Virus record (IMG/VR): IMGVR_UViG_3300037493_003174
Location: 1 to 64,000 of that record
Direction: 5' to 3' (one strand)
DNA length: 64,000 nucleotides
Source: a virus
Made by a program: the position numbers and the translations under genes. A model generated the notes under the pieces. The model had not been told where the DNA came from, did no database searches, and worked only from the letters and a program-made list of their open reading frames with translations. Shown here piece by piece: positions 6,139 through 26,281 of this stretch (position 1 is its first letter; every line of letters starts with the position of its first letter).

Positions 6139-7353
6139 ATGGCAACAACATGCACAATCTGCGGATGCAGTAAACCAAAATGCGGATGTCAAGACACAAT
6201 GTTGACATCACCAGCACCATGTCCTACACCAGTAGGATGTCTTAATCCTGAGCCATGCTCTGAAGTATTAGATGCCCAATGTATTATATACACAGGTGAT
6301 GATATCATTTGTACACCAGATGTTGTAGTAAATGCAAATGATTCTGTTGCACTTGCATTAAATAATATAGTAGATTATTTTTGTTCTCAAAGTCCTACCC
6401 CTGTAGAAGATACTGGTTGGATAGACTTAGAAGGATTTGCATATTATCAATCAGGAATGGCTACACAAAAGCCACAAGTACGTAGAATGGGTAAACAGAT
6501 TCACTTTAGAGGTGATTTATACTTACCATTATCTGATGGTACAGTTATTCCTATTCCGTTGACTACTCCTGATACATATAGAACTCTGTTATATAAGACT
6601 CCTTATATAGGAGCTGGTGGATTAATTAATGATGGTACAGATAGATTATTATTTAATAGTTCAGGTTCTGCAGCTCAATCTGTAATTCCAACAAGTGTGT
6701 TGCCTGCATTAACTAATCTAGATGGAACTTATAAACTATCTAAACTTATTGCTACACGTCAATTTAGAATACGGGAACCACAAAGTGATACTGGATCAGG
6801 AACATTAACTTTAACTGCACCTATTATATTAGAAATTCTTCCTAATAAAACTTTACGCATAACACCAGTAGAAGTGATAGAATCTAATAGTGTTGACACT
6901 ATTAGTTTTGATGGTAACTCCGCCTTTAGAAACATTACAAGTAGTTTCAGTGGTAGAAGTATTATGACAAATTTAAAAAATTGGGTTAGTGCAAGAACTG
7001 GTTTACATAGTAGAGCGGGAAATATACAAACAGATGGGGTATTAATAATTGGTAGATTATACACTATGCTTGACTCTTATATAGGTGATGACTTTACAAA
7101 TGTAGGAGCAATTACAACGGGCTCTGGTCAATCATTTATTGCTACAGGAACAACACCTACTAGTTGGACGTTAGGTACTCAATTAATGGTAGTAGAGTTA
7201 TCAGATATAGAGGCAAGTTATCCTCCAAACGGTAATAATTTAGTAGCTTCATTCCCCGTACCACTAGATGGAAGTTACTTGGATGCTGGTAGTCATACAG
7301 ATATTGGTGGATTTAAAATTAGTTTAGATGGGCTTATAGCTTATTTAACATAA
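6139..7353 (+). CDS. Putative fibre/adhesin protein, paralog of the upstream gene
   Basis: Shares DAQCIIYTG, DTGWIDLEGFAY...PQVRRMGKQIHFRG and the C-terminal GGFxxxLDGL with 4391..6127. Confidence 0.55.
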   Translation: MATTCTICGCSKPKCGCQDTMLTSPAPCPTPVGCLNPEPCSEVLDAQCIIYTGDDIICTPDVVVNANDSVALALNNIVDYFCSQSPTPVEDTGWIDLEGFAYYQSGMATQKPQVRRMGKQIHFRGDLYLPLSDGTVIPIPLTTPDTYRTLLYKTPYIGAGGLINDGTDRLLFNSSGSAAQSVIPTSVLPALTNLDGTYKLSKLIATRQFRIREPQSDTGSGTLTLTAPIILEILPNKTLRITPVEVIESNSVDTISFDGNSAFRNITSSFSGRSIMTNLKNWVSARTGLHSRAGNIQTDGVLIIGRLYTMLDSYIGDDFTNVGAITTGSGQSFIATGTTPTSWTLGTQLMVVELSDIEASYPPNGNNLVASFPVPLDGSYLDAGSHTDIGGFKISLDGLIAYLT

Positions 7354-8053: not shown

Positions 8054-8712
8054 CAACAGTTGGTGAAGCAATATCAAGAGTAAGAAATACTTTAAAAGCA
8101 GTGAAAGAGGATCCTTTTTTAACAGATAGGGTTATTTACTTTTCACTTATTAAGTATGCAAAGACTTTGATAAAAAGAGAAGACAATCAATTTAGACTAA
8201 TGAAGATGAGCTCTATATTTAGGGTGTTACCTTATATAGAACTTATTGATGTAGATAAAGTTGAGGCAGGGTGTATAGGAATATATTCTGAATGTTATTT
8301 TAAAAGATCTAAGGAAAAACTTCCAACTATACTTAATGGTATGTTTGGACCTATTATCCGTACTGCATCTTCTATAGATGGATCTATTGAACTATTTAGA
8401 ACAGAACCAGGTACTTGGATATCAATTACTAAATCTAGTACCTTCAAGTATAATAAAAGACCTTACTTTTGGTATCTTGATGGTTATCTATATTGTCCAA
8501 ACATTGATTGGGATGCAATAAGAGTTGAGGCAATTTTTGAAGGCACCTTAGATACATGTAATTCAGAAGAGTGTCAAATATTTCAAAATACAGATTTTGC
8601 TATTCCGGAATATTTATTCTCTGAAGTTGAACAGTTTGTCATAAAAGAATTAACCATGACTATGTCAGTTCCAACAGATGGTCCAGATGATAGTCAAAAT
8701 GCTCTTAGATAA
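8050..8712 (+). CDS. Putative tail tubular/ring protein
   Basis: Size, position between the IHF-like and stabilization genes, and YFWYLDGYLY motif; translationally coupled (ATGA). Confidence 0.5.
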   Translation: MTTVGEAISRVRNTLKAVKEDPFLTDRVIYFSLIKYAKTLIKREDNQFRLMKMSSIFRVLPYIELIDVDKVEAGCIGIYSECYFKRSKEKLPTILNGMFGPIIRTASSIDGSIELFRTEPGTWISITKSSTFKYNKRPYFWYLDGYLYCPNIDWDAIRVEAIFEGTLDTCNSEECQIFQNTDFAIPEYLFSEVEQFVIKELTMTMSVPTDGPDDSQNALR

Positions 8713-9755
8713 TGGATTTTAATTACACACTTAAGTATCGCACATTTGATTCTTTACTAGAAGATGTCAGTATTGACTTAAATACTCTGGCCTTAGAGAA
8801 TATGATTGAGCCTCAGCAGCTTATCAAAGTAGCGCGCAGATTAAACTATGATCTTGGTTTAAGAATAAATCAAACTAAAGAAGCTGTATTAGAGGTTTGT
8901 CATGGAAGAGTTAAGCTCCCTGATGATTTCTATGTATGGAATTATGGAATGGTGTGTGGTGAATATACTGTTATGACTGGTTATGGTGGACAAGTTTCTG
9001 GAACTAATATTCAAGAGGTTCCTTATAGAGAGTTTCCAGCTACAGTTGATCAGTGTGCGCCTCCTACAGTTAATTGTAGAACCTGTAATTCTAATCCTTG
9101 TAATCATACTGCAGCATGTGATCTTAATCATCCTATAGTAGATCCAATACCAACTGAGTATGATCCAAATAATCCTTATGGTAATACATGCATTGCTCCA
9201 AGAGTATTTATGAACTGTAAAGGAGAGAAATGGGAACTGATACAAGAACTTAATCCAGTTCAATCAAGAGTTTACACATCTTTGGTTCCTTTAAGAATGA
9301 AGAAGAGTCAGAATATAGATTGTGAATGTCCAAATCTTTATTACAATACAGCTAATGAAGGTTGGCTAAAGGATAATTACTTATACACAACTTTTCAAAC
9401 TGGTCATGTTTACATAAACTACCAGGGAGAGATGACTGATGAGAATAATAATTTAATGGTTCCTAATCATGAATTAATCAATGACTATTATGAATATGCA
9501 TTGAAGAAAAGAATAATAGAAAACTTAGCTCTTAACGGAGAAGACATGGCTCAAAAGCTACAACTTATTATTCCAGAATTTAGAGCAGCAAGAAATGCAG
9601 CACTAAGTTTAGTTAATACACCAAACTTTAAAGAAATGGAAAAAGTATGGTGGACAAACAGAAAAGCACAGTATGCAAAATACTATGATATGTTTAAAAG
9701 TTATAGTCCAAATGATCCATACTTTAGAAGAACAGGAACTTCAAGACTGATGTAA
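8712..9755 (+). CDS. Putative tail tubular/ring protein (P22 gp4-like) with Cys-rich insertion
   Basis: VKLPDDF and terminal YYEYALK motifs; directly upstream of the stabilization protein; TAATG coupling. Confidence 0.5.
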   Translation: MDFNYTLKYRTFDSLLEDVSIDLNTLALENMIEPQQLIKVARRLNYDLGLRINQTKEAVLEVCHGRVKLPDDFYVWNYGMVCGEYTVMTGYGGQVSGTNIQEVPYREFPATVDQCAPPTVNCRTCNSNPCNHTAACDLNHPIVDPIPTEYDPNNPYGNTCIAPRVFMNCKGEKWELIQELNPVQSRVYTSLVPLRMKKSQNIDCECPNLYYNTANEGWLKDNYLYTTFQTGHVYINYQGEMTDENNNLMVPNHELINDYYEYALKKRIIENLALNGEDMAQKLQLIIPEFRAARNAALSLVNTPNFKEMEKVWWTNRKAQYAKYYDMFKSYSPNDPYFRRTGTSRLM

Positions 9756-12700: not shown

Positions 12701-15355
12701 ATGCAGATGCCGGGTTATTATAATGCAGCAGGTACTTTCCAATCTTACAGTATTAATAACCTTAAAAGATCTGACGCAGTTGTAATAAGAACAGATGCTG
12801 GTCCAAATTATGCAGGCCCCTATAGTAATGGTGTTATTGGTCCAAACTATATTCTTGAATCTTTAAGCTATGTAGATCAATCATTAACTACTCTTGGACA
12901 TATACAGCAAAATGGTTTGGTTAATGCAGTTACATTAAATTCCTATTTTCCTAATCCAAATGTAGGTCCAAATTTTGAGTATAAAGATGCTAATTTTGCT
13001 TTGCCTATTGCTAGTCATTATGCAGCAATGAAAGTAAGAATCCAAAATCAATATGGTCAACTACAAGCTATAAAACAAATTGTAATAACTCCATGTGAGC
13101 AAAAGTTTAATTACAATACTTTAGAACCATGGGGTCCTTATAATCAATGTGGATCATGTAATCTTGCAGTTGTTATTAAAAAGATTAATATTACTCCAAT
13201 ATTTTTTGGTGGAGATGTTTATATAAATAGATACACAGAAAAAAATTCAATGTTCTTTTTTTATGATTGGTTATATGGTCAGCCTGATGGATTTGAATAT
13301 AACTATGCAATTCATCAGATGATTCCTGAACCAAGATTTTATGTTAACTCTAAAAAGTATGAAGTATCAGATCTTAATCCTGCTAACTTAAATGCAGTAA
13401 CACCCGGAACAGGAGCCTTTCCAACAAGATTTTATAGAATGGATCATGGGCCAACAAATACAAATCCAGGATATGACTATACGGATGATACAGCAGGAGA
13501 TTATCCAGGTGTGTTTAGACCAAAAGATTCATACTTCTATTTAGCTGTTTCTTCTGTAAGAGATTTCTTTGTTGAGTCAGATGTGATAGTAGACTATAGA
13601 GAAGCTGGAGACTATGAATGGGAAAAACATTATGACCCATACCGGTATACTCAACTTAGTAGAATGTTTGATATGAATCCTGATATTATTACAAGAGGTA
13701 ACTGGTATAGATATGATTATTCATTAAGTGTAAGTAAACTATATAATCAGTATTTCTCTTCTGGTAATTTACAAAATAGATACTATAATCCAAATGTATC
13801 TCAACTATGTTATACATATCTTCCAGATAGAATTTATTATTCATTGCAACAACAAGATGAATCATTTAAAGATAGTTGGTTTATATTTTTACCAAATAAC
13901 TATAGAGAATTTAAGTCTCAGATATCTGGTGTTAAGTCTATAAATAAAAGTGGTTTATTTATTACATTTAAAAATGACAGCCCCCAAATGTTCCAAGGTG
14001 TTGATACACTTCAGACAGATTTAGGAACTAAGATAACTATTGGTGATGGTGGTTTATTTTCTCAACCCGCTCAATCTGTTTCAAATGCCGATAGACCATA
14101 TGAGTATGGATCATCTCAAAGTAGACTTGGAGTTATCTCTACCCCAGCAGGCTTATTCTATGCATCACAAAATCAAGGTAAGTTGTTTAGTTATGGAGGA
14201 GGGTTAAAAGAAATATCTCAAGTTGGATTAAAATGGTGGTATTCAATGTTCTTAAGATGTAAACTTATAACTCAGTTTCCTGATTATCCATGGCAAGATA
14301 ATCCAGTAGCTGGTGTAGGTGTACAGGCTGTATATGATAATGAAAATTCTAGACTTTACTTTAGTAAAAAAGATTATATTGTTAAAGATGGAATTGATTT
14401 AGATAGAGTAGATTATGTACCATTAGTAGTTGACTGCCGTCAAATAAGTAATGGTAAAGGCTATAGAAAAGGACAAGGAGATTTCTTTACCTTAGATGGT
14501 AATGGAAGATATTTATTAGGTGATCCTGCTATATTTGAAAGTGCCTCTTGGACAGCAAGTTATGATCCTAAGAATGAGATGTGGATTTCATTTCATGACT
14601 GGCATCCTGATTTAGTAATGCCAAGTAAAACTATTTTCTTAACAACAAAGAAAAATAGTTTTTGGAAACATAACTATGTATGTGATTCTTATTGTAAGTT
14701 CTATGGAATAGAATATCCTTTTGAGATTGAAACTCCTATTGTTACTGGTCAATCACCAACAGTAATTAAGTCATTTGAATACATTATTGAAGCATATAAA
14801 CATGCAGCAAACTGTGTTGATCAATTTCAAGTATTAGACTATAACTTTGATACAGCAATTGTTCATAATGCAGAGCAAGTATCTGGATACTTAAATTTAA
14901 ATATATTTCCTAAAAACAATATTACATTGAGTTTAGAATATCCTAAGTTTAATCCATCTATTCCCATGATCATTAGGGATACAGTAGTTGGTCTGCCTGG
15001 ATTTGATATCTTGTTCTCAAAAGAAGAAAACAAATATAGATTTAATCAGTTCTGGGATGTAACAAGAGACAGAGGAGAATTTCCTATTGGTTCTGGTTAT
15101 CCTCCACAGGGCCCATTAGTTCCAGGAACAACTGAGTTGCTTGGTAATTATCCTCAAGAGATTGCATGGATTACATTACCTGATGGATACCGTAGAGAAT
15201 TAAATCTTATAAATTTAGATTACAACAAAGCTCAATTACAAAGAAAAAAGTTCAGACATTATTTAAACTATATAACTTTAAGAAAAGAAATTTCTGGTAA
15301 TATTAACATGGTTGTTAAAGTACTAAACAGTAAGAATCAATCTTCTTTAAGATAA
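9755..15355 (+). CDS. Tail stabilization/muzzle protein (P22 gp10-like, crAss-type)
   Basis: 1866 aa; N-terminal FSKGMNKD..NATN..GTLSNE, VYFADGLNPDR, FFGGDVYINRY and C-terminal WISFHDW motifs are characteristic of crAss-like muzzle proteins. Confidence 0.75.
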   Translation: MAKGLQNTTQNVTRSFSKGMNKDADPSFVGDGMWTHARNATNNTDEGNIGTLSNEQSNVLCATAGLTMPATAVDKYIIGTIQLYSDKWIVFTAGHDSTGIPVMSEIGLLETDNCIYRPIVQDACLKFDKRYLISGASREKEDCTWQVYFADGLNPDRVLNVGDPQTWPTANYYWIGQSNINYYSNGTNVLLWPGVKWKQICTDETGVSETQPDVWPSGHPIGCITCVDINQLDCEKIRLARLMKTPCLNLIFGNQGGTLRNGTYFATIAYSIKGQKVTDYFSQSNNQQIWTSQDLQGSLVLELEADSVNFDEFILVIVQNINQGTVAKQIGIYSTRTTIIALDQIKEDLITVPLEQLPIQTPVFEKSDQIAEVNNYLLRVGPTSKFDFNYQPLANLIRARWASVEYPSDYYVKNGNKASYLRDEVYCFFIRWVYDTGDKSASYHIPGRAPGLYNGIPEDGISFNENALSASDNVFEVFNTASIGTIPSGLSTTTDDGGTVIAVGNMGYWESTEKYPDNTPEIWNTSFQCWTGFYNQPSNVYDLCGDNIRHHKFPDNCLDPSANKLTNHFKPTVSNQPNELKIRLLGVYFENIAYPKDNEGNDIPGIIGYEILRGSREGNKSIIAKGMLNNFRTYDIVGQVNNPAAPRKGIYANYPFNTIKPFYNTGTGTDHNRGLIDPYIRIPDPNDPQNSVLDQNVPLDFVSFHSPDTSFRTPFLSATELKIYGYLRGASTQRFIEPNQHPKFKLFSDLAIAPMFVVGIAEAIVSVIGKRTFSDPSVQSYTEQMRGTAGVGAINLTLGPTGVGQLTSGTSIAGAGGRIDDSAAQNTALGLIRNLPGGITSWNQFWNTYYSSGNAIIDVPLMIAGGFPLTTVGIATTALRTVLNNNANNAGIPLANQTGTIELPNFAYLPAALRIASGVSQLLFYFSEGANLAADIIRAIIPYTQYALQMIAHGFYSDMRSPDASKLFRFNIEDSSYIRDNIMQMPGYYNAAGTFQSYSINNLKRSDAVVIRTDAGPNYAGPYSNGVIGPNYILESLSYVDQSLTTLGHIQQNGLVNAVTLNSYFPNPNVGPNFEYKDANFALPIASHYAAMKVRIQNQYGQLQAIKQIVITPCEQKFNYNTLEPWGPYNQCGSCNLAVVIKKINITPIFFGGDVYINRYTEKNSMFFFYDWLYGQPDGFEYNYAIHQMIPEPRFYVNSKKYEVSDLNPANLNAVTPGTGAFPTRFYRMDHGPTNTNPGYDYTDDTAGDYPGVFRPKDSYFYLAVSSVRDFFVESDVIVDYREAGDYEWEKHYDPYRYTQLSRMFDMNPDIITRGNWYRYDYSLSVSKLYNQYFSSGNLQNRYYNPNVSQLCYTYLPDRIYYSLQQQDESFKDSWFIFLPNNYREFKSQISGVKSINKSGLFITFKNDSPQMFQGVDTLQTDLGTKITIGDGGLFSQPAQSVSNADRPYEYGSSQSRLGVISTPAGLFYASQNQGKLFSYGGGLKEISQVGLKWWYSMFLRCKLITQFPDYPWQDNPVAGVGVQAVYDNENSRLYFSKKDYIVKDGIDLDRVDYVPLVVDCRQISNGKGYRKGQGDFFTLDGNGRYLLGDPAIFESASWTASYDPKNEMWISFHDWHPDLVMPSKTIFLTTKKNSFWKHNYVCDSYCKFYGIEYPFEIETPIVTGQSPTVIKSFEYIIEAYKHAANCVDQFQVLDYNFDTAIVHNAEQVSGYLNLNIFPKNNITLSLEYPKFNPSIPMIIRDTVVGLPGFDILFSKEENKYRFNQFWDVTRDRGEFPIGSGYPPQGPLVPGTTELLGNYPQEIAWITLPDGYRRELNLINLDYNKAQLQRKKFRHYLNYITLRKEISGNINMVVKVLNSKNQSSLR

Positions 15356-18300
15356 TGAATAAGAAATCCAAATCTAAGATTATTGTTGATCCAAGAGGCC
15401 AGTGGGCACATCCTGGAAAACTAACAAGAATACCTGGTAATGATATTACTATGCAAGGTGTTCCATATCCAGTTATGGCATATCCTGATTTTGGTTCACC
15501 TGTAATGATGCATCCAGAAGAAGAATATAATTTTCCGGGTGCTAAGTATGTTGATGAATATCCAGAAATGAAGTCAGGTAGGAATACAGATAAGCATGTC
15601 ATAGTAAAACAATCTACTATAAAAGGAGCAGACAAAGGTTTATTTTCTAATCAAAGCTTTAAAAAAAATCAACTTATAGGTTTAGCGCATAGAGATGGTC
15701 AACCAGTAGGAGAGATTGGAAAGATGCATAATCACTCTGATAAACCTAACATGTATAGTGTTAAGAAAGGTAATGAAAGACATGTCTATGCAAAAAGAGA
15801 TATTAAAGCTGGGGAAGAGTTAACAACTGATTACAAGCTTCAACCAGAACTTGAGCAACCTGATGATTTTAAAAAAGGTGGGCAATCACCTAAAATAAGA
15901 ATACCAACAAGCCCTAAAGGAATTAAGTCAAAAGCTTATTCAAGAAGTCTTGAAGCAACAAATAGATTATTTGCTCTTAATCCTTTGTTTGAAGTACCTA
16001 AATCTAGAAAAAGAAAAATCTTTGATCCTAATGCTAGTTTCTATGAAAATGGTGGTATAGTATCATTTGACTATGATGATACTCTCACAAGTGATGCAGG
16101 GATGCAAATGGCTATGAATATACCTAATGATCAGAAGTATATAGTATCTGCTAGAGGAGAAGTTACTCCAGGTATGATTGATAGAGCCCGTAATGCGGGT
16201 ATTTCAGAAGATAGAATCTTTGCTATGGGTTCAGATGAAGCTAAGGTAGCTAAAGTAAAAGAACTTGGTATTGATAGACATATTGATAATAAACAATCAG
16301 TAGTAGATCAGCTAGGTACTAATGGTCAGTTATTTAAAGCGGGGGGTCAATCATCTTCTAATGACTATATTGAAATGGAACTAAGCCCAGAAGAGATACA
16401 AGTATATAGAGATGGTGGTTATACAGTAGAAGAACTTGATGATTATAAAAAAGGTGGTGCTTTACTTACTAAGAAAGTAACTTGTAAAAAATGTGGTTGG
16501 ACGTGGGATGCTGCAGATGGTGGTAATGATATGACTACATGTCATAAGTGTGGTGGCCAAGGATTAATACATGCTCAAAAGGGGGGGCAATCAAATTTTT
16601 ATACTGTATCTGGTAGTGAAGGTGTTTACAAAAAAGTTAATGGTAAATGGGAAGTAGATTGGAATAAATCTGGAAAGTTTCAACCATTATCAAAAGGTGA
16701 TGTTGAAAAAAGAACAGCAGTTTTAAATAAACAAGCTAAACTTTTATATGATTCAGATTACAATGATCTTGCAAACTCAAGAGACTATAAAGCTGTACCA
16801 AAAACAGTAATACAAAAAGCTCCAACAGTAGAACAGAAAAAAGTACAAGCAACTTTTAATAAAGACTTTAAAGTTACAGACAAAAGTAAACTTGAAAAAG
16901 TTCAAGATAAAATTAAAACAGATCAAGAAAACTTAATTAAATGGGGTCAAGAAAATAATGTACCTGTAGATCAAAAACAATTAGATGATGTAGAAAATTG
17001 GGGAATGAATGTTTATGGTAAAGTGGGTAATCAAGCAAACCCTGATACAATAAAACAAGTTACTCCAGAAGAAGCACAAGAGTTCTGGGATAAAGCAGGT
17101 GATATAGCTGCAAATCCTATGACAGCCGCAGGGTTTTTTATGCGTGGTCAAGATATTCCAGACTATATGCAGAGAGATATGGATCGTGGTACATTTGGTT
17201 ATTATGCAAATGGTCAGTTACATACTGAAAGAAATCCATTAGACTTTGCTCTTGCTGACATGACTGGATTAAGTATGATTAATGATGCAAGAAGTGCTTA
17301 CAAAGGTATAAAAGATAAAAATGTAAGTGAAGCTGGCTTAGGTTTACTAGGATTTATACCAGGTGTGAGTGAAGCAAGAAAAGCAGGAAAAGTTATTAAT
17401 GCTGCAGATGCTGTAAATGATACGCGTAAAGCTATAAATTTTTCAGGTCCCATGGTACATTCTTATGGAGATAGAGCAGAAGTATTAGGTGCTTTATCTC
17501 AAAGAGGTAAAAACTGGGACAAGTTAGGAGCTAAAGGAGAAGATCTTTTACATAAAGACATGGTAAATTATCATGGAACATATTCTGGAAGACCCATTGT
17601 TGAAGTTAAAATGCCTGATGGTTCTTCTGAAATGTTTTATAAATCTTCTGGATGGGCAAAAAAAGCAGGAGCTGCAGACAATGGTACCACAGAAGGTATG
17701 TGGCAAGTTTATGGTGGACATGCAGATGACTCCAATAATTGGTTTATGAAAGATGATAATGTACATGTTCCAGGCTTAAGTTATAAAGATTACTATGGAA
17801 GTAATACATTCCGTGGTATGGCAGAGAATATGGATAAAACATTAATGCAAAAATATGGTTTGCAATCTACAAATGAACTTGATGATGTATTAAATTTTCA
17901 AAACAGATATGGAGCTGTTGATACCTATACTCCAAAAAGAAAAACTGGTGGTTTTATTGAACTTGATCTTGATGAGGAAGAAATAGAATACTATAGAAAA
18001 GGTGGGTTTACTATAGAGGAAGTTAAGTTTCAAGATGGTGGTATGCCAACTGTTCCAACTATGCAAGAAAGTCAGACTCAGGTTGTCACTCCTATGTTAG
18101 TACCTGACATGATGCCTACAGGAGATCTTGTTGCACCTCCAGTTGTTACTGAACCTATAGTGGCTACAACAGTTCAACAACCAGCTACCCTAGTGAACAC
18201 TCCAGTAATAGATCAACCAACACCTACTAAGAAAGAAGTAGAGAAAGTAGCAATGCCAAAGATTGAACAATCAGGTGATGTTAAAGCAATTCAAAAGAAA

Positions 18301-20211
18301 CTAGTAACTGCAGGATATAATATTGGAGCTACAGGTCCAAGTAAAGATGGTGTAGATGGTATCCTGGGTAATAAGACTCAAATGGCATTAGATGCTTTTA
18401 ATTCTGGTATTCCTCCTTCTAAAGTAAAAACAATTGAACCAAAGAAAGAATCACAAAGTACTAAGTATGTGATTAACAAAAATCTTGGAACAGGTTACTT
18501 ACCATATCTCGATAGAGGAGAAGGAGAAGAAATTTGTGTTAAAGGTAAAGGATGTTCATTTAATGTAAGTGTTAAGATGAGTAACTTACTTGGTGAAATA
18601 GCTGATGGGGATATATGGGCAAATGATGCTTGGTTTAATAAGTCTGATGTTCTTAATAAAGGTGGAGATCTTATTTATGAAACCACAGAAAGAGACATCA
18701 GTAAGATGCCCAAGGTTCCTAAAGATGTTTATGCAAAATTACAAGTTGGTGATTATGTACAGCTCAATAGGATAAATACAAAAACAAGTGGAGAGTTTGC
18801 TGCAGAAAAACAAGGAGGTTTAGAAAATGAAAATGTTGAACACCTTGGATTTGTAGTTGGTAAAGATAAAGATGGTACGCCACTAATTTGGCATGGTTCT
18901 GAAAAAGGAAAAGCTTTTATTAAAAGACTTGATGAGCCAATAAGTCTTGATGATCATGACAAAAGTATATTCACTTATCAAGTTGCATCTATTGTAAGAT
19001 CACCTAGTCTTAAAAATGCTGACTTATCTGGATTACAGAAAACAGTCTATTACAGTACAATTGATCCTAAACAAAAACTAATAGCTAGTAAAACAGCAAC
19101 TGAACGTCAAAGACAAGCAACAGGTGTTATTAATAATAATGTTAGAAATCTTAAAAACTTAGGTTACACTCAAGAAGATGCAAATTTTGTAGGACAGATT
19201 CTTGTAGGAGGAATCATGCAAAATGAAACTCAGGGTGGAGAATCAAATAAAAGAATTCCTAAACAAATTGCAGCTACTCTTTATAAAGATGTTCTTGGTC
19301 AAGGAGAGTTTGAAGGAGATGAAGCAAGTATTGGTTATTACCAAATGAAACCTACTTTAAACTTTGTCAGTAAAGATGGGTCATTAAATGCACTTGGTAA
19401 AAAATTAGAAAAACTTGGAGTTGATCCTAAAGATATTGGAACTTTTGATATTGAAGCACAAACTAAAGCAGGTGCAATTATTCTTTTAGATAATTATGAA
19501 CAACTTAAAAAAGATAAAGATTTTAATATTAAGACTGGTCTATATAAAGGAAAGATACCAGCATCTTATATTTTAGCTAAGTCTTGGCAAGCAGGAACTG
19601 ATTGGTATAAGAGAGAAAAATATCAAAAATATCTTAATAACTTTGATATAGATTATAGTAATAATGTATTAAAAAATGCTCTTAATACTATGAGCAATAC
19701 AACTACAAGTAATCAATTACAAAAAGAATATAATACAGTAAAGAAAGGAATTACATCAAGAGAACAAGCTAATGCAGATATTCAAAGAGCTCAAAGTCTT
19801 AAAGAATTAGTAGAAAAAAATAACAGAGAAGCTGAGTATCAAAAGAATAATCCAAATTATGCTTATTCAAAAAAGGTACCTACTGAGTCTACTGCTGTTT
19901 ATAATTCTTATAAAGATACATTTAAAACACCTGAGTATACTACGAAACCTATAATAGAAAGTACAGTTTATAAATATCCTGAAAGACCTGGAGTAACTTA
20001 TAAAAAAGATTCAAAAGGTAAATGGTATGTTAACAGTGGAAAAGCAACAGGCAACAAGTACGTTCCTATACAAGATCCATCTGGGAGTAGAACAAAAGCT
20101 TTAGTAAAGGGTGCGGTTAAAGCTAAAGAAGGGGGTATGATTGTAAATCTTACACAAGCTGAAATTGATAGATATATTAAGGATGGTTATGTAATAGAAC
20201 AAATAGATTAA
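15355..20211 (+). CDS. Multidomain virion cargo (poly)protein: SET, HAD-like, Zn ribbon, toxin-like, PG-binding, NlpC/P60-like and lysozyme-like domains
   Basis: SET: GLF..NHSxxPN..ELTTDY. HAD: SFDYDDTL..SAR..K..HIDN. Zn ribbon: CKKC..CHKC. PG-binding: VKAIQKKL..GVDGILGNKT. NlpC: GCSFNV..HLG..IWH. Lysozyme-like: MQNET..IGYYQMK. Confidence 0.65.
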   Translation: MNKKSKSKIIVDPRGQWAHPGKLTRIPGNDITMQGVPYPVMAYPDFGSPVMMHPEEEYNFPGAKYVDEYPEMKSGRNTDKHVIVKQSTIKGADKGLFSNQSFKKNQLIGLAHRDGQPVGEIGKMHNHSDKPNMYSVKKGNERHVYAKRDIKAGEELTTDYKLQPELEQPDDFKKGGQSPKIRIPTSPKGIKSKAYSRSLEATNRLFALNPLFEVPKSRKRKIFDPNASFYENGGIVSFDYDDTLTSDAGMQMAMNIPNDQKYIVSARGEVTPGMIDRARNAGISEDRIFAMGSDEAKVAKVKELGIDRHIDNKQSVVDQLGTNGQLFKAGGQSSSNDYIEMELSPEEIQVYRDGGYTVEELDDYKKGGALLTKKVTCKKCGWTWDAADGGNDMTTCHKCGGQGLIHAQKGGQSNFYTVSGSEGVYKKVNGKWEVDWNKSGKFQPLSKGDVEKRTAVLNKQAKLLYDSDYNDLANSRDYKAVPKTVIQKAPTVEQKKVQATFNKDFKVTDKSKLEKVQDKIKTDQENLIKWGQENNVPVDQKQLDDVENWGMNVYGKVGNQANPDTIKQVTPEEAQEFWDKAGDIAANPMTAAGFFMRGQDIPDYMQRDMDRGTFGYYANGQLHTERNPLDFALADMTGLSMINDARSAYKGIKDKNVSEAGLGLLGFIPGVSEARKAGKVINAADAVNDTRKAINFSGPMVHSYGDRAEVLGALSQRGKNWDKLGAKGEDLLHKDMVNYHGTYSGRPIVEVKMPDGSSEMFYKSSGWAKKAGAADNGTTEGMWQVYGGHADDSNNWFMKDDNVHVPGLSYKDYYGSNTFRGMAENMDKTLMQKYGLQSTNELDDVLNFQNRYGAVDTYTPKRKTGGFIELDLDEEEIEYYRKGGFTIEEVKFQDGGMPTVPTMQESQTQVVTPMLVPDMMPTGDLVAPPVVTEPIVATTVQQPATLVNTPVIDQPTPTKKEVEKVAMPKIEQSGDVKAIQKKLVTAGYNIGATGPSKDGVDGILGNKTQMALDAFNSGIPPSKVKTIEPKKESQSTKYVINKNLGTGYLPYLDRGEGEEICVKGKGCSFNVSVKMSNLLGEIADGDIWANDAWFNKSDVLNKGGDLIYETTERDISKMPKVPKDVYAKLQVGDYVQLNRINTKTSGEFAAEKQGGLENENVEHLGFVVGKDKDGTPLIWHGSEKGKAFIKRLDEPISLDDHDKSIFTYQVASIVRSPSLKNADLSGLQKTVYYSTIDPKQKLIASKTATERQRQATGVINNNVRNLKNLGYTQEDANFVGQILVGGIMQNETQGGESNKRIPKQIAATLYKDVLGQGEFEGDEASIGYYQMKPTLNFVSKDGSLNALGKKLEKLGVDPKDIGTFDIEAQTKAGAIILLDNYEQLKKDKDFNIKTGLYKGKIPASYILAKSWQAGTDWYKREKYQKYLNNFDIDYSNNVLKNALNTMSNTTTSNQLQKEYNTVKKGITSREQANADIQRAQSLKELVEKNNREAEYQKNNPNYAYSKKVPTESTAVYNSYKDTFKTPEYTTKPIIESTVYKYPERPGVTYKKDSKGKWYVNSGKATGNKYVPIQDPSGSRTKALVKGAVKAKEGGMIVNLTQAEIDRYIKDGYVIEQID

Positions 20212-20225
20212 ACTTATTAAGTTTA
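20209..20225. promoter_or_regulatory. Palindromic operator-like site TAAACTT-N3-AAGTTTA
   Basis: Perfect 7-bp inverted repeat; a second copy lies at 26278-26296. Confidence 0.5.
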
Positions 20226-20236
20226 TCCAATAAATT

Positions 20237-20251
20237 AAAATTTAGTATATT
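20237..20251 (+). promoter_or_regulatory. Putative phage late promoter AAAATTTAGTATATT
   Basis: 15-bp exact match to 45381-45395; both are intergenic and 16 nt before an ATG. Confidence 0.6.
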
Positions 20252-20267
20252 AACTATATAAGATAAT

Positions 20268-23200
20268 ATGAAAAAAAGAGTTAGAATCTATAAGAGCCCA
20301 ACAGGTGAAGGACAGTTTTTAAATAAGACTGCACAATTTTTACGTAAAGCTCAGATGGGTGGTGCACCTACTGCAGAAGAATTATCATATCCGGGTGCTA
20401 CTCAAGGTCAAACACAACAAGTAGATGATAATCAACTTGCTTCATTAGTACTACAAGATATTAGTAACTCAAGACCAAAAGAAGAGATAGTAGTTAAGTT
20501 GGTGAATATGTATGGTAAAGATCCAATGGAAGCAACTACTTTGGTAAATCAAATGTATACTTATCTTGAAGAACAATCAGAAGCACAGAAAGAAGAAGAT
20601 TCTGAAGAATCATCAGATGAAGAAATTACAGGTGGAGATCCAGAAGATGCTCAGGAGGAAACAGTAATGAATCCTGTTCAAGAAATTGAAGAAGACTTCT
20701 ATGGTGATGACATGAATAATGATATGGCAAATCAAGTTGCTAATGAAGATGATGAAGTAGAAGATGATGATACTGATGTTGCTTCTCAAGTAGTAATGAT
20801 GAGAGGCGGCTACATGAGAGCACAAGATGGAGCAGAAATAGAAAGTGAATATCCAATTGTATTTCCAGGAGTTGAAGCATACTTACCTGCAAACATGTCT
20901 GACATGATGGGTGGTAGTTATGATGTAGCAACTGGAGAAGCTTGGCAAAGACCAGAGTTTACTGCACCTGAAACTTCAGATGATGCTGGTATCTCATATG
21001 GTTATATGGATCAAGGTGCAGAGGAAGCAATGGTAGAAGATGCCCCTGAAGGAATACCAACAGAAGAAAGTGAGTATAGAAAAGGTGGAGCTTACAAAAA
21101 AGGTAAGAGTGCTTATGTAAATTCTGTACTTAAGTTAGTTAAGAAACAAATAGGTGGAGATCAAGAAAATAATAATCCTAATGACCTTACTAAAAAAGAA
21201 GATCAATCAGATCCAATTGGAAATGATTTAAGAAGAGGTATCTTAAGTAATTATATTGGAACCCTTAAGAATCAAGGTCAGATGGCTGTTGCTAAAGAAG
21301 AAGCAGAACAACAGTATGATCAAATGATGCAACAGCAACAAATGATGCAACAGGGTATGCCTCAAGCTCCAATGAATTATTCTGAAAATGGTGAAATGCT
21401 TGATGAAGCTCAGTTTGGTGGATTGTTTAATAGAAGAAGAAATCAAGAAGGTCAAGAGAGAAGAGGCTTGTTCAATAGAAAACCAAGGATTCCACAAGGA
21501 TTTGGTTATGGCTATCCTCCAATAGAATCAGTAGATGTATACAAGAGAGGTATATTTGGTAGACCAAAAGAATACTCAGTTAACTTTGGACAAATGCCAT
21601 CTGTTATGCCAGGTTATGGTATGCAAGGTAGTGGACCAGGTTTCTATGGTTATGGTTATACAGGTACTAAAAAGACTCCTGCAAGAAAAATTGTAGAAGA
21701 TAATGCTATTTATGTAAATAGTCAAGCTAATAAAGATGTAGCTGTAGTTACTCCGGGTAATGAAGCAACTAATAAAGATGTTAAGGTTGAAGAAAAAGTT
21801 GAAGTAAAAGCTGATGGTACAACAGAAACAGTTGCAACTACTGAAGTTAAAACTCCTGGGACTGAAACTCCGGTTACTGTAAACAGTTCTAAAACTGCAA
21901 AAGAAAAACAAGTTACTAAAGATCAAGTAAAAGGTCAAAAAGAAGTTAATGTTCAGAAACGTGCTGATGGTATTTACACTTATCCAAATAAGACTGCAAT
22001 TTATAAGAAACAAAATAACCAGTGGTATATTGATATAACTGGTGTAGGAAATGCATTTCAAAAAGTTTCTTCTGGAGATGTAGAGGGTAGAGTAAATGCA
22101 TTAGAAAAAAATGCTGTAACATATGTTCAACCAAAAGCTAAAGTAGTACCCATTCCTATTGGAAATAGGCCTGACTTAATGAAAGATGCAACAGGAGTAG
22201 CTTCTCAAGTAAGACAGGTTGCAGTTCCAACTTATGATTTTAAAAAACCAAAACCAAAAGTTAACGCTTTTGATATGGATAAAATTATGGCTCCAATAAA
22301 AGATCCATTCATGTTCCCAAGACAAACAGTGATTGATCCAAAAGGATCACAACTTTTTGGATTACAAGATGGAGGTATCATACAAGATCCTTTTTCTGAT
22401 GAGTATGGTAATCTTCAAAGATTTGTTTATGGAGGAGATGATGATCTATCACTTGCAAATATGGATCAGTCTGATATTGATTACACAGGATCAGAAGATG
22501 TAACAGATCCATACTTTCAAAAAGGAGGTTTGCTTAAAAACTTGTTTCCTGCTAACTTAAATAGAAATTACAGTACAGAATATAGAGGTGCACGTAATGC
22601 TGCAGGAGAAGTTGTTCCTGGTTATTTTGGTAAGAATTCACAACTTAAATCAGTAGATGTTCAAAAAACAGGTTTATTAAGTGGAAGACCTAAGAAGTAT
22701 TCAGTTACTTTTAGTAATCAAAGTTCTGATCCAACTAAACCAATGATTAGTTTAGATAGACCAGGTACAGAAAGTGTTATACCTAAAAAAGCTCCTATGG
22801 CTTTATCTCAAAGAGAAATGGATAGAGGTGATAGACAAGCAGGAAGACAGAGACCATTAACTGCTGGTAAAAAATATGAAAAATATTTTGAAGAACCTGT
22901 ATTGAATGAGGAAGAACAAGCAAAAGCTTTTGATAATCAATTAAAATATCAAGCTAATGTAGATGCTTATCATAAGGAAAGATCAGATAATACTGCAATG
23001 ATTAATAAAATGTTTAATCAAAAAGGAGAACAGCCTGGAATAACACAAAATCAAATGCAAGAGTTTCAGCAGATGATTGGTAATCAAACAGGAATACCTA
23101 GTTATGCTGAATCTCCATATCCAACTCAAGTAATGCGTCCTGAAGGTGAGTTTCCTGAAGGATATGTACAAAGGAATCCAATGTATGGTGCAGCATCAGA

Positions 23201-23969
23201 TAGCTATGAAAGTTACTTAGACTTTATAAATAGTGGTATGCCTTTAGGACAAGGTATGACAAGAAATGAGATGACAAGAGAGCAGTACATGGGAGAGTAT
23301 GGTCATTATAATGATGGTGGTGCTTTAAGAAAGTTTATACCTACTGCTCAGTATGGTGGTGATAGCCCTGTAGTATATACTAATAATCCAGCAATGGATG
23401 GGATGACAGATGTTGATATGTTATCTCTTAACCCTGGTATTCAAGATTTAGATCAATCATCTTTAACAAGTTTTATGAATGTTGATAGTCCTACAAGAGA
23501 TCAATCACAAGACCCAAAACAATATACTGTAGATCCAAATCAAGCTTCAAGACAACAAACTGAAAAAGTTTATGAACCTGAAGGAGATGTAACATATGAC
23601 TTTAAAACAAAAACTAATGTTGATCCACAAGCAGCTTTACTTACAGGTAATGCAGCTGCTAAAGGAGTTTTAGGATTTGTTGATAGAATGCAAAATAAAA
23701 AGAACGAGGCAAAAATGTATAAAAATCTTACTTCTGATAATTTATATGCAAGTGATCCTAGTAGAGACCGTGGTGATTATGAATCAAACTCTGGTTTATA
23801 TAGACCAGATGACATGGGTGAAACTTGGAATAGTAGATCTGCACAAATGGGTGGTCAAAATAGTTATCTTAATGAAGATCCTGACTATGTAGAAGGAGAT
23901 GAAGTTGATATGACAGATGAAGAATTAGCAAACTTTATTGCTAACGGTGGTGAAGTTGAATATTTATAA
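20268..23969 (+). CDS. Low-complexity virion cargo protein with multiple xxxGG motifs
   Basis: 1233 aa; acidic and Q/M-rich; about 12 GG motifs; internal repeats. Confidence 0.55.
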   Translation: MKKRVRIYKSPTGEGQFLNKTAQFLRKAQMGGAPTAEELSYPGATQGQTQQVDDNQLASLVLQDISNSRPKEEIVVKLVNMYGKDPMEATTLVNQMYTYLEEQSEAQKEEDSEESSDEEITGGDPEDAQEETVMNPVQEIEEDFYGDDMNNDMANQVANEDDEVEDDDTDVASQVVMMRGGYMRAQDGAEIESEYPIVFPGVEAYLPANMSDMMGGSYDVATGEAWQRPEFTAPETSDDAGISYGYMDQGAEEAMVEDAPEGIPTEESEYRKGGAYKKGKSAYVNSVLKLVKKQIGGDQENNNPNDLTKKEDQSDPIGNDLRRGILSNYIGTLKNQGQMAVAKEEAEQQYDQMMQQQQMMQQGMPQAPMNYSENGEMLDEAQFGGLFNRRRNQEGQERRGLFNRKPRIPQGFGYGYPPIESVDVYKRGIFGRPKEYSVNFGQMPSVMPGYGMQGSGPGFYGYGYTGTKKTPARKIVEDNAIYVNSQANKDVAVVTPGNEATNKDVKVEEKVEVKADGTTETVATTEVKTPGTETPVTVNSSKTAKEKQVTKDQVKGQKEVNVQKRADGIYTYPNKTAIYKKQNNQWYIDITGVGNAFQKVSSGDVEGRVNALEKNAVTYVQPKAKVVPIPIGNRPDLMKDATGVASQVRQVAVPTYDFKKPKPKVNAFDMDKIMAPIKDPFMFPRQTVIDPKGSQLFGLQDGGIIQDPFSDEYGNLQRFVYGGDDDLSLANMDQSDIDYTGSEDVTDPYFQKGGLLKNLFPANLNRNYSTEYRGARNAAGEVVPGYFGKNSQLKSVDVQKTGLLSGRPKKYSVTFSNQSSDPTKPMISLDRPGTESVIPKKAPMALSQREMDRGDRQAGRQRPLTAGKKYEKYFEEPVLNEEEQAKAFDNQLKYQANVDAYHKERSDNTAMINKMFNQKGEQPGITQNQMQEFQQMIGNQTGIPSYAESPYPTQVMRPEGEFPEGYVQRNPMYGAASDSYESYLDFINSGMPLGQGMTRNEMTREQYMGEYGHYNDGGALRKFIPTAQYGGDSPVVYTNNPAMDGMTDVDMLSLNPGIQDLDQSSLTSFMNVDSPTRDQSQDPKQYTVDPNQASRQQTEKVYEPEGDVTYDFKTKTNVDPQAALLTGNAAAKGVLGFVDRMQNKKNEAKMYKNLTSDNLYASDPSRDRGDYESNSGLYRPDDMGETWNSRSAQMGGQNSYLNEDPDYVEGDEVDMTDEELANFIANGGEVEYL

Positions 23970-23977
23970 TTTAAGCT

Positions 23978-26281
23978 ATGTTAAGAAGAGTAAGAATTAA
24001 ATCTGTACCAAAAGCTAGAACAGGGTATCAAGTTAATGGTGGTTTAGCTAATGATGTACCATCATTTGGTGGTGCTGATTACAATGCATATATTGGTGAA
24101 CAACCATCTGAGGTAAAGAGAACACTATCTGCGGTTCCAAGAAAAGAAGCTAATCTAGAAGCTGAAGGTGGAGAAACTGTAATAGGAAATATTGATGGTA
24201 GTATGATGCCCTCTTTTTTTACAATTACTGGTCCACGCCACAGTAGTGGAGGTGTTCCATTAAACTTACCAGATGACAGTTTTATTTTTAGTGATACTAA
24301 GTCAATGAAGATTTCAGACCCAACTATTCTAAAAATGTTTAATGCTAATCCTAAGAAAGGTGGATACACTCCGGCTGACTTATCTAAGAAATATGATCTT
24401 AACAGGTATAGAAAAATACTTCAAGATCCTAATTCAGATAAGATGGATAGAAAGACTGCTGAGATGATGATTAAGAATTACACCATGAAACTTGGTGCTT
24501 TAGCATTAGCTCAAGAGTCTAAGAAAGGATTTCCTCAAGGTATACCTGAATTATCAAAACCTTATATGGAGTCTAATGGAATTACTGAAGAAGACTTACT
24601 ACCACAAAAACCACAACCACAACAGCAGATGCCGTCACAAGAAATGATGGAGGCTCCTGAAATGGAAGGTATGGAAGAGATGCCAATGGAAATGCCAAAT
24701 GGGGAACAGATAGCTCAACCTCAGTCTATGGAGCAAGATATGGCTGCTCAGGAAATGATGCAACAACAAGCTCCTATGGCTTATAGTGGTCAACCAATGG
24801 CTATGTATGGGATGTCAATGGGAGGTTATGAGTTTCCTTATGAGTCAAATGAAATGGCTTATGGAGGATTGACTAAAGCACAAACTGGAGTTATCACACC
24901 TTATGAAGAAGCAAGAACAAAACAAGGAAATGTAACTCCAACGGGTACATCAAATAAGTTTAGTTCACGTAAACAATCATTAAATGATTATTTAAAACAA
25001 TGGGAAGATAGTATTCCTGGTATTGGTAAAATGACAGAAGGCCAAGCACAAAAAGCTATTTATGAATGGACTTTAAAAAACAATCCTGAAAGCATTAAGA
25101 ATATGTGGACAACACATGGTCTTACAGCTAAAGGTATGAAGAATGCAAAATTAAAAGCATTGAGTAAAGATGGGTCAGGTAAATTTACTGAAGAACAATT
25201 AAAAGATCCTAAACTGTTAGAACAGTTGCAAGATGCATATGTAGATAATTATTTTGGTGTAAGACAATTAGATCCTGTAAAAGCAGAAGAAGTAAAAGAT
25301 GGGCCTGTATCAACAGAATGTCCATGTCTTGATGATAAAGGTGTAGCTATTGCAGGAAAGTTTGCTCAGAAGAATGAGAAAGATGAGTGTATGCCTGAAA
25401 CATGTACACCAAAAGAAAGCTGTGAATGTGATAGAGCAGATGGTACGGTATATGATCCAGGTATGAATACTGATGGTAGTTGTAAAGAATGTGAAGAAAT
25501 TATCACAGAAGAAGGAGATGTACTTAAACCGCCAGCAGAAAAAAGAGAACCAGAATGGTGGTTACAAGATACTGTAAATACTATGGGTGCATTTGGTGAT
25601 ATGATGAGTGCTAAGAAATATATGCCTTGGGAAGCAAGAGTTGATCTTGAAGAACCAAGACCTACATTCTTAGATCCTACAAGAGAACTAGCTGCACAAT
25701 CTGAACAAGCTAATATTGCAGCTCAAGCAGCTTCTTCATTTGCGGGTCCTCAAGCATTGAATGCAAGACTATCTCAGATACAAGGTCAAGGAGCTAGATC
25801 AGCTGCAGATACACTTAGTAGAATTAATAATCAAAATGTTAATATTGCTAATCAGTTTGAAGCAAATCAAGTTGGTGTAAGAAACCAAGAAAATCAAATG
25901 AATCAGCAAATGGCAACTAGAGTATATGACAAAAATGTTATTGCTAATCAACAGTTTGATAATGCTAAAAGACAAGGGGCTGCAAATATGAGACAGGCTT
26001 ACAATACTGCAGTAACAAATAGAATGAAGACAGATGCATTAAATCAAATGTATCCTAACTATCAAACTAGACCGGGTGTTGGAGGACGTGTAGAATATAC
26101 ACCAACTGACAAAGCTGTTGATCCAGGAGCAAAGCAAGCAACAATGGGAGAAGAATTAAAAGAATTAATGTCTCAAGGATTTAGTAAAGAGTCTGCTGAA
26201 AAATACCTTTTAAATAAATATAAAAAGAAAGGTGGTAGTACAACAGGATACGTATATACTGATTGGCCAATCTTCTTATAA
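23978..26281 (+). CDS. Virion cargo protein (EAEGGE/GPxHxxGG domain, Q/M-rich linker, coiled coil)
   Basis: 767 aa; NLEAEGGET..GPRHSSGGV..FIFSD; N/Q-rich helical C-terminus. Confidence 0.55.
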   Translation: MLRRVRIKSVPKARTGYQVNGGLANDVPSFGGADYNAYIGEQPSEVKRTLSAVPRKEANLEAEGGETVIGNIDGSMMPSFFTITGPRHSSGGVPLNLPDDSFIFSDTKSMKISDPTILKMFNANPKKGGYTPADLSKKYDLNRYRKILQDPNSDKMDRKTAEMMIKNYTMKLGALALAQESKKGFPQGIPELSKPYMESNGITEEDLLPQKPQPQQQMPSQEMMEAPEMEGMEEMPMEMPNGEQIAQPQSMEQDMAAQEMMQQQAPMAYSGQPMAMYGMSMGGYEFPYESNEMAYGGLTKAQTGVITPYEEARTKQGNVTPTGTSNKFSSRKQSLNDYLKQWEDSIPGIGKMTEGQAQKAIYEWTLKNNPESIKNMWTTHGLTAKGMKNAKLKALSKDGSGKFTEEQLKDPKLLEQLQDAYVDNYFGVRQLDPVKAEEVKDGPVSTECPCLDDKGVAIAGKFAQKNEKDECMPETCTPKESCECDRADGTVYDPGMNTDGSCKECEEIITEEGDVLKPPAEKREPEWWLQDTVNTMGAFGDMMSAKKYMPWEARVDLEEPRPTFLDPTRELAAQSEQANIAAQAASSFAGPQALNARLSQIQGQGARSAADTLSRINNQNVNIANQFEANQVGVRNQENQMNQQMATRVYDKNVIANQQFDNAKRQGAANMRQAYNTAVTNRMKTDALNQMYPNYQTRPGVGGRVEYTPTDKAVDPGAKQATMGEELKELMSQGFSKESAEKYLLNKYKKKGGSTTGYVYTDWPIFL

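Follow-up and report, generated by a model that had tools for sequence, protein, structure and literature searches.

We examined a 64,000-nucleotide stretch of viral DNA (positions 1 to 64,000 of the IMG/VR record IMGVR_UViG_3300037493_003174, hereafter the window), which belongs to a virus record of 82,341 bp with an estimated completeness of ~69% and encodes a long run of virion genes on the plus strand. Within this run, a gene for a muzzle-like protein is followed by three adjacent genes for cargo proteins, which we call P1, P2 and P3, and then by open reading frames (ORFs) of 988, 1806, 3554 and 1947 amino acids. The cargo proteins carry recurrent short motifs ending in a glycine pair (GG), and these motifs, together with two kinds of tag that contain them, are the subject of this study. 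An initial annotation had listed 26 GG-ending pentapeptides in the three proteins as borders between virion domains; all 26 were recovered at the same positions, and P1, P2 and P3 together contain 40 GG dipeptides, 14 more than had been listed.

The distribution of the motif proved to be non-random, with specificity for the three cargo genes. When each protein was shuffled 1000 times with its composition kept, the 40 GG dipeptides exceeded the 27.8 expected (p ~0.01), and no shuffle reached the counts of the patterns [FYWAM]xxGG (21 observed against 5.2 expected) or [FYA][KRQ]xGG (14 against 0.7); the motif pattern was picked post hoc, after inspection of the data, although the effect is nevertheless large. 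By contrast, the remaining 62 ORFs (22,620 amino acids) were depleted in GG, with 51 observed and 74.8 expected, and [FYA][KRQ]xGG was absent from them compared with an expectation of 2.0. In a family-wide comparison set of 80 related loci from viral contigs, the motif occurred 2.22 times per 1000 amino acids in the cargo ORFs that separate the muzzle-like gene from P3 and 0.78 times in P3 itself, compared with 0.07 in the muzzle-like protein and 0.0-0.23 in the three downstream proteins. The impression in the initial annotation that the pattern is not dense in the flanking virion proteins, and the enrichment over the rest of the proteome that it had put forward as a check, were both confirmed by these shuffles and densities. 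GG pairs make up about one third of all invariant columns.

The motifs fall into several kinds, namely linker punctuation, the turn of an acidic tag, the end of a basic tag, helix caps in P2, and GG inside folded domains. The last kind, found in the Zn ribbon and C-terminal block of P1 and at EAEGG and HSSGG of P3, stands outside the motif system. The treatment of all listed motifs as linker sites describes the linker type in P1 and fails for several others, which form the internal turn of the acidic tag or the end of the basic tag.

P1 comprises an N-terminal domain followed by SET, HAD-like and Zn-ribbon modules, an unknown helical/beta region, a peptidoglycan (PG)-binding domain and a conserved C-terminal block. 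Pfam matches were obtained for SET (E=1.7e-9) and PG_binding_1 (E=1.1e-3), the SET fold in the AlphaFold2 (AF2) model matched vSET (3kma; template modelling score, TM, 0.66), and no MPTase domain was detected in P1. The C-terminal block (residues 941-1618) has no Pfam family match of its own and no PDB sequence match; its relatives carry cell-wall-hydrolase families. The homologs of P1, at least 340 in number, range from 448 to more than 2300 amino acids and carry differing domain sets in which VanY, GH24, SLT, Amidase_2, LysM, SET and others are swapped. Because its relatives vary in length and swap domains, P1 is a mosaic polyvalent protein as PMC5512222 uses the term: unrelated domains (SET and PG_binding_1) are joined in one polypeptide, and the gene lies in a virion and late-gene context, between the muzzle-like and CrAss_Ring_1 genes on one side and giant virion proteins on the other.

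Two lines of evidence indicate that the motifs mark the cassette borders of P1. In an AF2 model of residues 1-960, folded blocks at residues 8-164 (the N-terminal domain and SET), 241-306, 373-400 and further on were separated by segments that hold the motif GG pairs at residues 175, 233, 330, 367, 410, 865 and 895, all of which had a predicted local distance difference test (pLDDT) score below 50. Furthermore, when P1 was compared with 119 homologs, a motif GG lay within 10 amino acids of 56% of the 389 internal ends of high-scoring segment pairs, where uniformly placed positions would give 12%. The homology breakpoints were clustered; each of the seven largest clusters lay 1-6 amino acids from a motif, and the largest of those near the linker motifs of the N-terminal half lay only 1-4 amino acids away. 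In the P1 family the logo reads [YF]-[QKR]-[KDE]-G-G, preceded by Glu at -7 and Ile at -6. The suggestion that the motifs may serve as domain-shuffling junctions is therefore borne out for P1 at the protein level, since the architectures of the homologs break at the motifs. The broader claim that the motifs delimit domains is upheld by the linkers and breakpoints of P1, is weak for the mostly disordered P2, and does not apply to some GG pairs of P3 (EAEGG and HSSGG).

P2, for which we found at least 224 homologs, is organized differently. Its AF2 model had a mean pLDDT of 44, with 870 of 1200 residues below 50, and scans of P2 and P3 against Pfam and PHROG gave no match. Nonetheless, in an alignment of 30 homologs reaching down to ~31% identity, 10 of the 14 GG pairs of P2 were kept in at least 26 homologs. 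Those at MMRGG, KQIGG, AQFGG, LQDGG, FVYGG and YNDGG were kept in 26-30 of the 30, that at FQKGG in 22, and those at YRKGG and AQYGG in six, the last two values coming from the first alignment. For the P2 family the logo reads [AKF]-Q-[YMF]-G-G, Gln occupying position -2 in 52% of 1617 GG pairs, and the GG pairs of P2 at residues 31, 180, 296, 722 and 1017 come within a few residues after short helices predicted by AF2. Large insertions in the homologs fell within 20 amino acids of a GG at four of ten sites, compared with 28% expected, a comparison limited to only these 10 sites. Thus, the picture of beads-on-a-string cargo in the initial annotation suits the polyvalent P1 but not P2, which is ~70% disordered and carries conserved helix-GG islands rather than a string of domains. 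P2 also contains an internal duplication of a module of ~25 amino acids, at residues ~417-441 (21516-21590; PIESVDVYKRGIFGRPKEYSVNFG) and ~793-816 (22644-22715; LKSVDVQKTGLLSGRPKKYSVTFS); both copies are predicted beta-hairpins, are conserved in homologs, and lie ~35-40 amino acids past a Q-x-GG motif.

P3 has homologs in 1909 representative clusters (E<=1e-3; clusters at 50% identity). Its N-terminal block (residues ~40-200) and its C-terminal block are conserved and enclose a variable middle, and the invariant EAEGG and HSSGG lie within the N-terminal block. In three members of the family (P0160, P0164 and P0190) the domain order is permuted, with the C-terminal block ahead of the N-terminal block in one polypeptide.

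Two further GG-containing elements recur in the cargo proteins. The first is an acidic micro-domain of ~24 amino acids with the consensus GGIELELTDEEIEEYRKGGYIVEEL, laid out as a strand, a helix EEIxxY(R/K)x, the GG, and a strand YxVEE. In AF2 models its GG is a predicted helix-to-strand turn, and its flanks are conserved on both sides. P1 contains three copies, of which copy 1 is flanked by FKAGG and YKKGG (helix 345-353, GG, strand 356-360 in the AF2 model) and copy 2 by RKTGG and FQDGG (helix 874-882, strand 885-888), whereas copy 3 forms the exact C-terminus of P1 and takes the GG of AKEGG as its opening two residues. P2 likewise ends exactly in an acidic tag, with SAQMGG (23841-23855) upstream of it. 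Of 120 P2 homologs, 116 carry the tag at the C-terminus, and 113 of 120 P1-family proteins contain it, in 226 copies of which 78 are C-terminal and 148 internal. In most cases an xxGG comes before the tag and xxYxxGG or SVPSLxxxxxGG after it, and the natural C-termini lie 5-6 residues past a GG rather than at the GG.

The second element is a basic N-terminal tag common to P2 and P3, M-x-(K/R)(K/R)-V-(R/K)-I...P-K-A-Q-x-G-G, by virtue of which both proteins start with a basic segment of 22-32 amino acids that ends in GG. Some P3 homologs also have the basic tag within their variable middle, mostly just past a GG.

Table. Coordinates of the cargo genes, their GG motifs and tags, and two upstream virion genes (positions in the window; HMM, hidden Markov model)
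Feature	Coordinates	Strand	Remarks
P1, mosaic polyvalent cargo protein, 1618 aa	15355..20211	+	17 GG
P2, mostly disordered cargo protein, 1233 aa	20268..23969	+	14 GG
P3, cargo protein, 767 aa	23978..26281	+	9 GG
Acidic tag copy 1, P1 residues 339-362, IEMELSPEEIQVYRDGGYTVEELD	16369..16440	+	HMM E=3e-12
Acidic tag copy 2, P1 residues 866-891	17950..18027	+	HMM E=2e-12
Acidic tag copy 3, exact P1 C-terminus, residues 1593-1618	20131..20208	+	HMM E=5e-14
Acidic tag of P2, exact C-terminus, residues 1209-1233, ...MTDEELANFIANGGEVEYL	23892..23966	+	HMM E=1e-11
Basic tag of P2, MKKRVRIYK...FLRKAQMGG	20268..20363	+	invariant M1 K2 K3 V5 Y8 G31 G32
Basic tag of P3, MLRRVRIKSVPKARTGYQVNGG	23978..24043	+	
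P1 linker motifs, N-terminal half	FKKGG 15868-15882, YENGG 16042-16056, FKAGG 16333-16347, YKKGG 16444-16458, AQKGG 16573-16587	+	
P1 later motifs	RKTGG 17938-17952, FQDGG 18028-18042, AKEGG 20122-20136	+	
P2 AQMGG, two copies	20349 and 23841	+	starts
P2 helix-GG islands	MMRGG 20796, YRKGG 21075, KQIGG 21144, AQFGG 21408	+	starts, 15 nt each
P2 helix-GG islands	LQDGG 22362, FVYGG 22422, FQKGG 22515, YNDGG 23307, AQYGG 23346	+	starts, 15 nt each
Tail ring ORF	8712-9755	+	Pfam PF24228 CrAss_Ring_1 (tail ring protein 1), E=3.4e-7, above curated cut-off
Muzzle-like ORF, 1866 aa	9755-15355	+	matches PHROG virion structural proteins

The two tags are distributed according to a simple rule. Among 263 non-redundant pairs of adjacent ORFs from the 80 loci (ORFs of at least 150 amino acids, gap of at most 150 nt), 78 combined an upstream acidic tail with a downstream basic head, and 167 had neither tag. 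An acidic tail alone was found in only two pairs, in both of which the downstream head was the cap variant MAKRKVIVYK, and a basic head alone in 16, in six of which the upstream ORF clearly ended in a degenerate acidic tag. Hence, 78 of the 80 ORFs with an acidic tail preceded an ORF with a basic head (Fisher p = 8e-48, uncorrected for shared ancestry). The mean charge at tagged junctions was -5.0 over the last 25 amino acids and +4.1 over the next 12, compared with +0.6 and -0.1 elsewhere, and the charges of tail and head co-varied (Spearman rho = -0.54). The rule was seen at three types of junction, those between P1 and P2, between P2 and P3, and within split P1 genes. In the last of these, seen in the loci L024 and L076, P1 is divided into two ORFs that form a third cognate pair, the first ending in ...LGYTIEKI and the second starting with MAKYRITS...; L073 has the same junction.

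Natural fusions of P2 and P3, which were found in five representative clusters, are informative in this respect. In these proteins P2 is joined at ...QYGG (residues ~1197-1210 of the query) directly to residue 11-12 of P3, and both the 37-residue acidic tail and the basic head are missing, with no match to the acidic tag in any of the five clusters. Three results are new here: the junction rule, the observations on the fusions and the statistics for the family as a whole.

These findings lead us to propose, with a confidence just short of even, that the GG motifs may serve a modular set of ejected cargo proteins as conserved modules for junction and docking, rather than primarily as protease sites. 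The pairing of the tags, their complementary charge and their joint loss on fusion all suggest docking, in which the acidic tail of one cargo protein would dock onto the basic head of its successor. P1, P2 and P3 could thereby line up, in this order, as a non-covalent chain that would substitute for the covalent link of the fused forms. The remaining aromatic or Gln-x-GG units would cap short helices and act as hinges or wall-binding segments, and the capped helix-GG units might keep the largely unfolded chain packed and ready for threading through the tail. In its widest form, which we hold to be rather doubtful, this proposal would have cognate tags joining the cargo of a large crAss-like clade into one ordered, non-covalent "polyprotein", with helix-GG units pinning or bending the chain and the gene order P1, P2, P3 giving the exit order of cell-wall enzymes and other effectors. 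The initial annotation had supposed that the cargo is either cut at the GG sites or loaded into the capsid through them, and the loading or docking half of that supposition fits the data better than the cutting half.

Several observations nevertheless count against docking. Most of the 78 tag pairs are orthologous copies of only three junction types, and the tags reached a pLDDT of only 45-58 in two single-chain folds. Some P1 proteins have no C-terminal acidic tag even though the next gene keeps its basic tag (for instance L016), and in L017 and L066 the C-terminal variants look basic, yet a basic head follows. The tags are also not strictly end-specific, since the acidic tag occurs internally in P1 and the basic tag internally in the middles of P3 proteins. 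Finally, the linker motifs, disordered and conserved chiefly in the residues before the GG, also have the look of protease sites.

The main rival reading is that a phage or host protease cuts after the aromatic or Gln-x-GG motifs, which would free the effectors of P1, trim the tags and chop P2 into peptides. The linker-type motifs lie in disordered inter-domain segments, the units between motifs are encoded as ORFs of their own in some relatives and within a single ORF in others, and the P2-P3 fusion point falls exactly at a QYGG site, all of which would suit such cleavage. There are also candidate enzymes, namely a putative metallopeptidase of the DUF2201_N family (60858-62162, minus strand) and the 3554- and 1947-residue virion proteins, which contain HExxH motifs, and processing of polyvalent and of giant crAss-like virion proteins has been proposed, though not shown (PMC5512222; bioRxiv 10.1101/2020.03.07.982082). 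However, the protease families that we searched for (C39, S78, C5 and C48, a set that does not cover T4-type S77 and others) were not found in this genome. For C39 (PF03412) and the HK97-type S78 there was also no match in five relatives that are 96-100% complete, whereas the absence of C5 (PF00770) and C48 (PF02902) at E<=1 refers to the 82-kb record, ~69% complete, the complete relatives not having been searched. Moreover, the GG of the acidic tag is a predicted turn inside a small fold with both flanks conserved, the natural C-termini end beyond a GG rather than at it, and cuts at every conserved site would leave P2 in eleven pieces, some of them only ~20-30 amino acids long. The joint loss of both tags in the fusions is more simply explained by docking than by cutting, and the virion study of crAss001 reports no cleavage of cargo, the strings "cleav" and "proteol" being absent from its text (PMC10172136). 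We regard GG-directed proteolysis as rather unlikely.

It is also conceivable, if quite improbable in our view, that the GG pairs are passive punctuation, that is, helix caps or hinges of a flexible, Gly-rich cargo, lacking any specific partner or enzyme, whose terminal tags serve needs such as stability or the context of translation start. The disorder of P2 and the position of several of its GG pairs directly after short predicted helices would agree with this, and gp45 of crAss001 is also Gly-rich with an excess of GG (21 compared with 13.3 expected) but with almost none of the specific motif, so that a generic GG excess may be common to such cargo. Passive hinges, however, would leave unexplained the invariant flanks (Gln at -2 in about half of the GG pairs of the P2 family, an aromatic residue at -1 or -3) in homologs of ~31% identity, as well as the strict pairing of tails with heads and the co-variation of their charges. 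Far less credible still is that the motifs are recombination junctions in the DNA or a chance effect of composition. Homology blocks do break at the motifs, and three sites share a GG followed by the codons caatca (QS); against this, the composition-keeping shuffles never reached the motif counts and the motif is under-represented elsewhere in the genome. Since the codons at GG pairs follow the general glycine codon usage and share no common nucleotide word, the signal lies at the level of the protein and not of the DNA, and a DNA recombination signal at the motifs was rejected on this ground; the explanation as a whole is largely refuted.

The surrounding genes place the cargo in the context of a crassvirus-like virion. 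The PF24228 match of the tail ring ORF ties this divergent phage to the crassvirus tail architecture, and the 1866-residue ORF sits at the place of the muzzle protein in the gene order. A collection of cultured phages contained no match to the region at the DNA level or to P3 at the protein level; only the muzzle-like protein had distant relatives (24-28% identity), which belong to a human-gut phage and to phages of Leptolyngbya, Cellulophaga (phi17:2 and phi4:1) and Flavobacterium. Upstream, three virion ORFs on the plus strand are very rich in cysteine (1731-4343, 4391-6127 and 6139-7353, with 67 Cys in 870 residues, 19 in 578 and 11 in 404, respectively); there is no Cys in P2 or the 988-residue protein, and there are 1-2 in each of the three giant proteins. 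The 3554-residue protein (34718-45382, plus strand) has a C-terminal match to 2-oxoglutarate (2OG)-Fe(II) oxygenases, below the curated cut-off, and a HEAWH motif at residue 807, and the 1947-residue protein (45412-51255, plus strand) has a LysM domain and a HEFSH motif at residue 191. The DUF2201_N gene, which is not part of the virion block, encodes a protein with a HELLH motif and a fused VWA-like DUF2201 domain; it adjoins an ORF of 396 amino acids (59656-60846, minus strand) with a faint STAND-NTPase match. In several related loci (L009, L012, L028 and L030) a small extra ORF lies between P3 and the next conserved gene and starts with MATYLQS..GIYKITN or MAK.L.LGN; the MATYLQS type, possibly an insertion resembling those of homing endonucleases, seems to duplicate the start of the gene that follows (MATYLQ...).

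A question raised by the crAss001 structure paper is how crassviruses and their relatives store several megadaltons of protein and then release it in order through a narrow tail. A motif system that is confined to cargo genes and conserved across a family of ~1,900 representative clusters offers a sequence-level handle on cargo storage and ejection, and the rule that an acidic tail precedes a basic head, both being lost on fusion, predicts the contacts between the proteins and their order. The GG motifs also provide defined sites for virion proteomics, which would settle whether phage polyvalent proteins undergo processing at all, and the tags and motifs are practical markers with which to find and delimit cargo genes and domain cassettes in metagenomes.

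Processing at GG is well known from other systems. It matures virion proteins in adenovirus (by adenain) and African swine fever virus (by pS273R), and C39 peptidases cut double-glycine leaders, whose consensus is L-S-x-x-E-L-x-x-I-x-G-G. As in these systems, the GG pairs described here are preceded by conserved residues, and the acidic tag, L-T-x-E-E-I-x-x-Y-x-x-G-G, appears to resemble that leader consensus, with one extra residue before the GG. The flanks differ, however, with Gln, Lys or Arg at -2 and an aromatic residue at -1 or -3, the tag is also conserved after the GG, and the acidic helix-GG element is C-terminal or internal and not an N-terminal leader. Sites of the adenain/Ulp type, (M/I/L)-x-G-G followed by any residue, are specified on the N-terminal side only; the linker-type sites, conserved mostly but not solely ahead of the GG, read [FYA]-[QKR]-x-GG or [AK]-Q-[YMF]-GG, and the GG inside the acidic tag has conserved residues on both sides. 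The internal proteins of T4 have an N-terminal capsid-targeting peptide that is removed by the prohead protease at L-x-E, and in the T4 internal proteins and the P22 and T7 ejection proteins terminal signals or contacts bring the proteins into the head, from which they exit ahead of the DNA. In contrast to the T4-type system, neither a prohead protease nor an L-x-E site is evident here, S77 not having been searched for. A parallel to the paired tags may be the docking domains of polyketide synthases and nonribosomal peptide synthetases (PKS/NRPS), in which complementary C- and N-terminal tags order the subunits and are replaced by plain linkers in fused modules. Here, too, complementary tags stand at consecutive termini and are lost on fusion, although the proteins and their biology are unrelated and the interaction is inferred from co-occurrence, charge complementarity and loss on fusion.

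Further precedents are found among phage cargo proteins. Like the polyvalent proteins, for which delivery with the DNA and possible processing have been proposed (Iyer et al. 2017, PMC5512222), P1 combines many unrelated effector domains in a late virion context and has mosaic architectures among its relatives. Unlike here, that study contains no conserved GG punctuation or end tags, and the terms "crass" and "linker" have no occurrences in it. In crAss001, the cargo proteins gp45 (C1) and gp46 (C2) are stored in capsid and tail, gp45 is attached through short helical segments to the portal and to the inside of the tail barrel, partial unfolding of the cargo during ejection has been proposed, and the authors, who also discuss the ejection proteins of P22 and T7, expect the order of ejection to depend on cargo-cargo interactions (Bayfield et al. 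2023, PMC10172136). The genes for gp45 and gp46 occupy the same position as the cargo genes of the window, with the muzzle gene on one side and the giant RNA-polymerase-associated genes on the other, but are two rather than three. Comparison of P2 and P3 with gp45 detected no similarity (BLASTP E >= 1; hhalign probability 0.4%); gp45 has a single [FYA][KRQ]xGG and gp46 none, and neither tag is evident in the two sequences by inspection, the tag models not having been run on them. Residues 202-214 of gp45 (L005, crAss001; MLANFSAYGGPLEF) resemble the C-terminal tag of P2 (ELANFIANGGEVEY) at 8 of 13 positions (E = 1.0, not significant) and directly precede the gp45 helix 214-245, a tail-barrel binder in the published structure. 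With sequence and profile comparisons negative and this 13-residue likeness not significant, no homology of P2 or P3 to gp45 was found. A docking chain would nevertheless fit the crAss001 structure, in which the helices of gp45 are pinned at the portal and the barrel wall. Full-text literature searches returned no description of the motifs or tags reported here; modular cargo of the ejected or polyvalent kind is thus known, whereas the conserved grammar of motifs and tags that accompanies it in this family is new.

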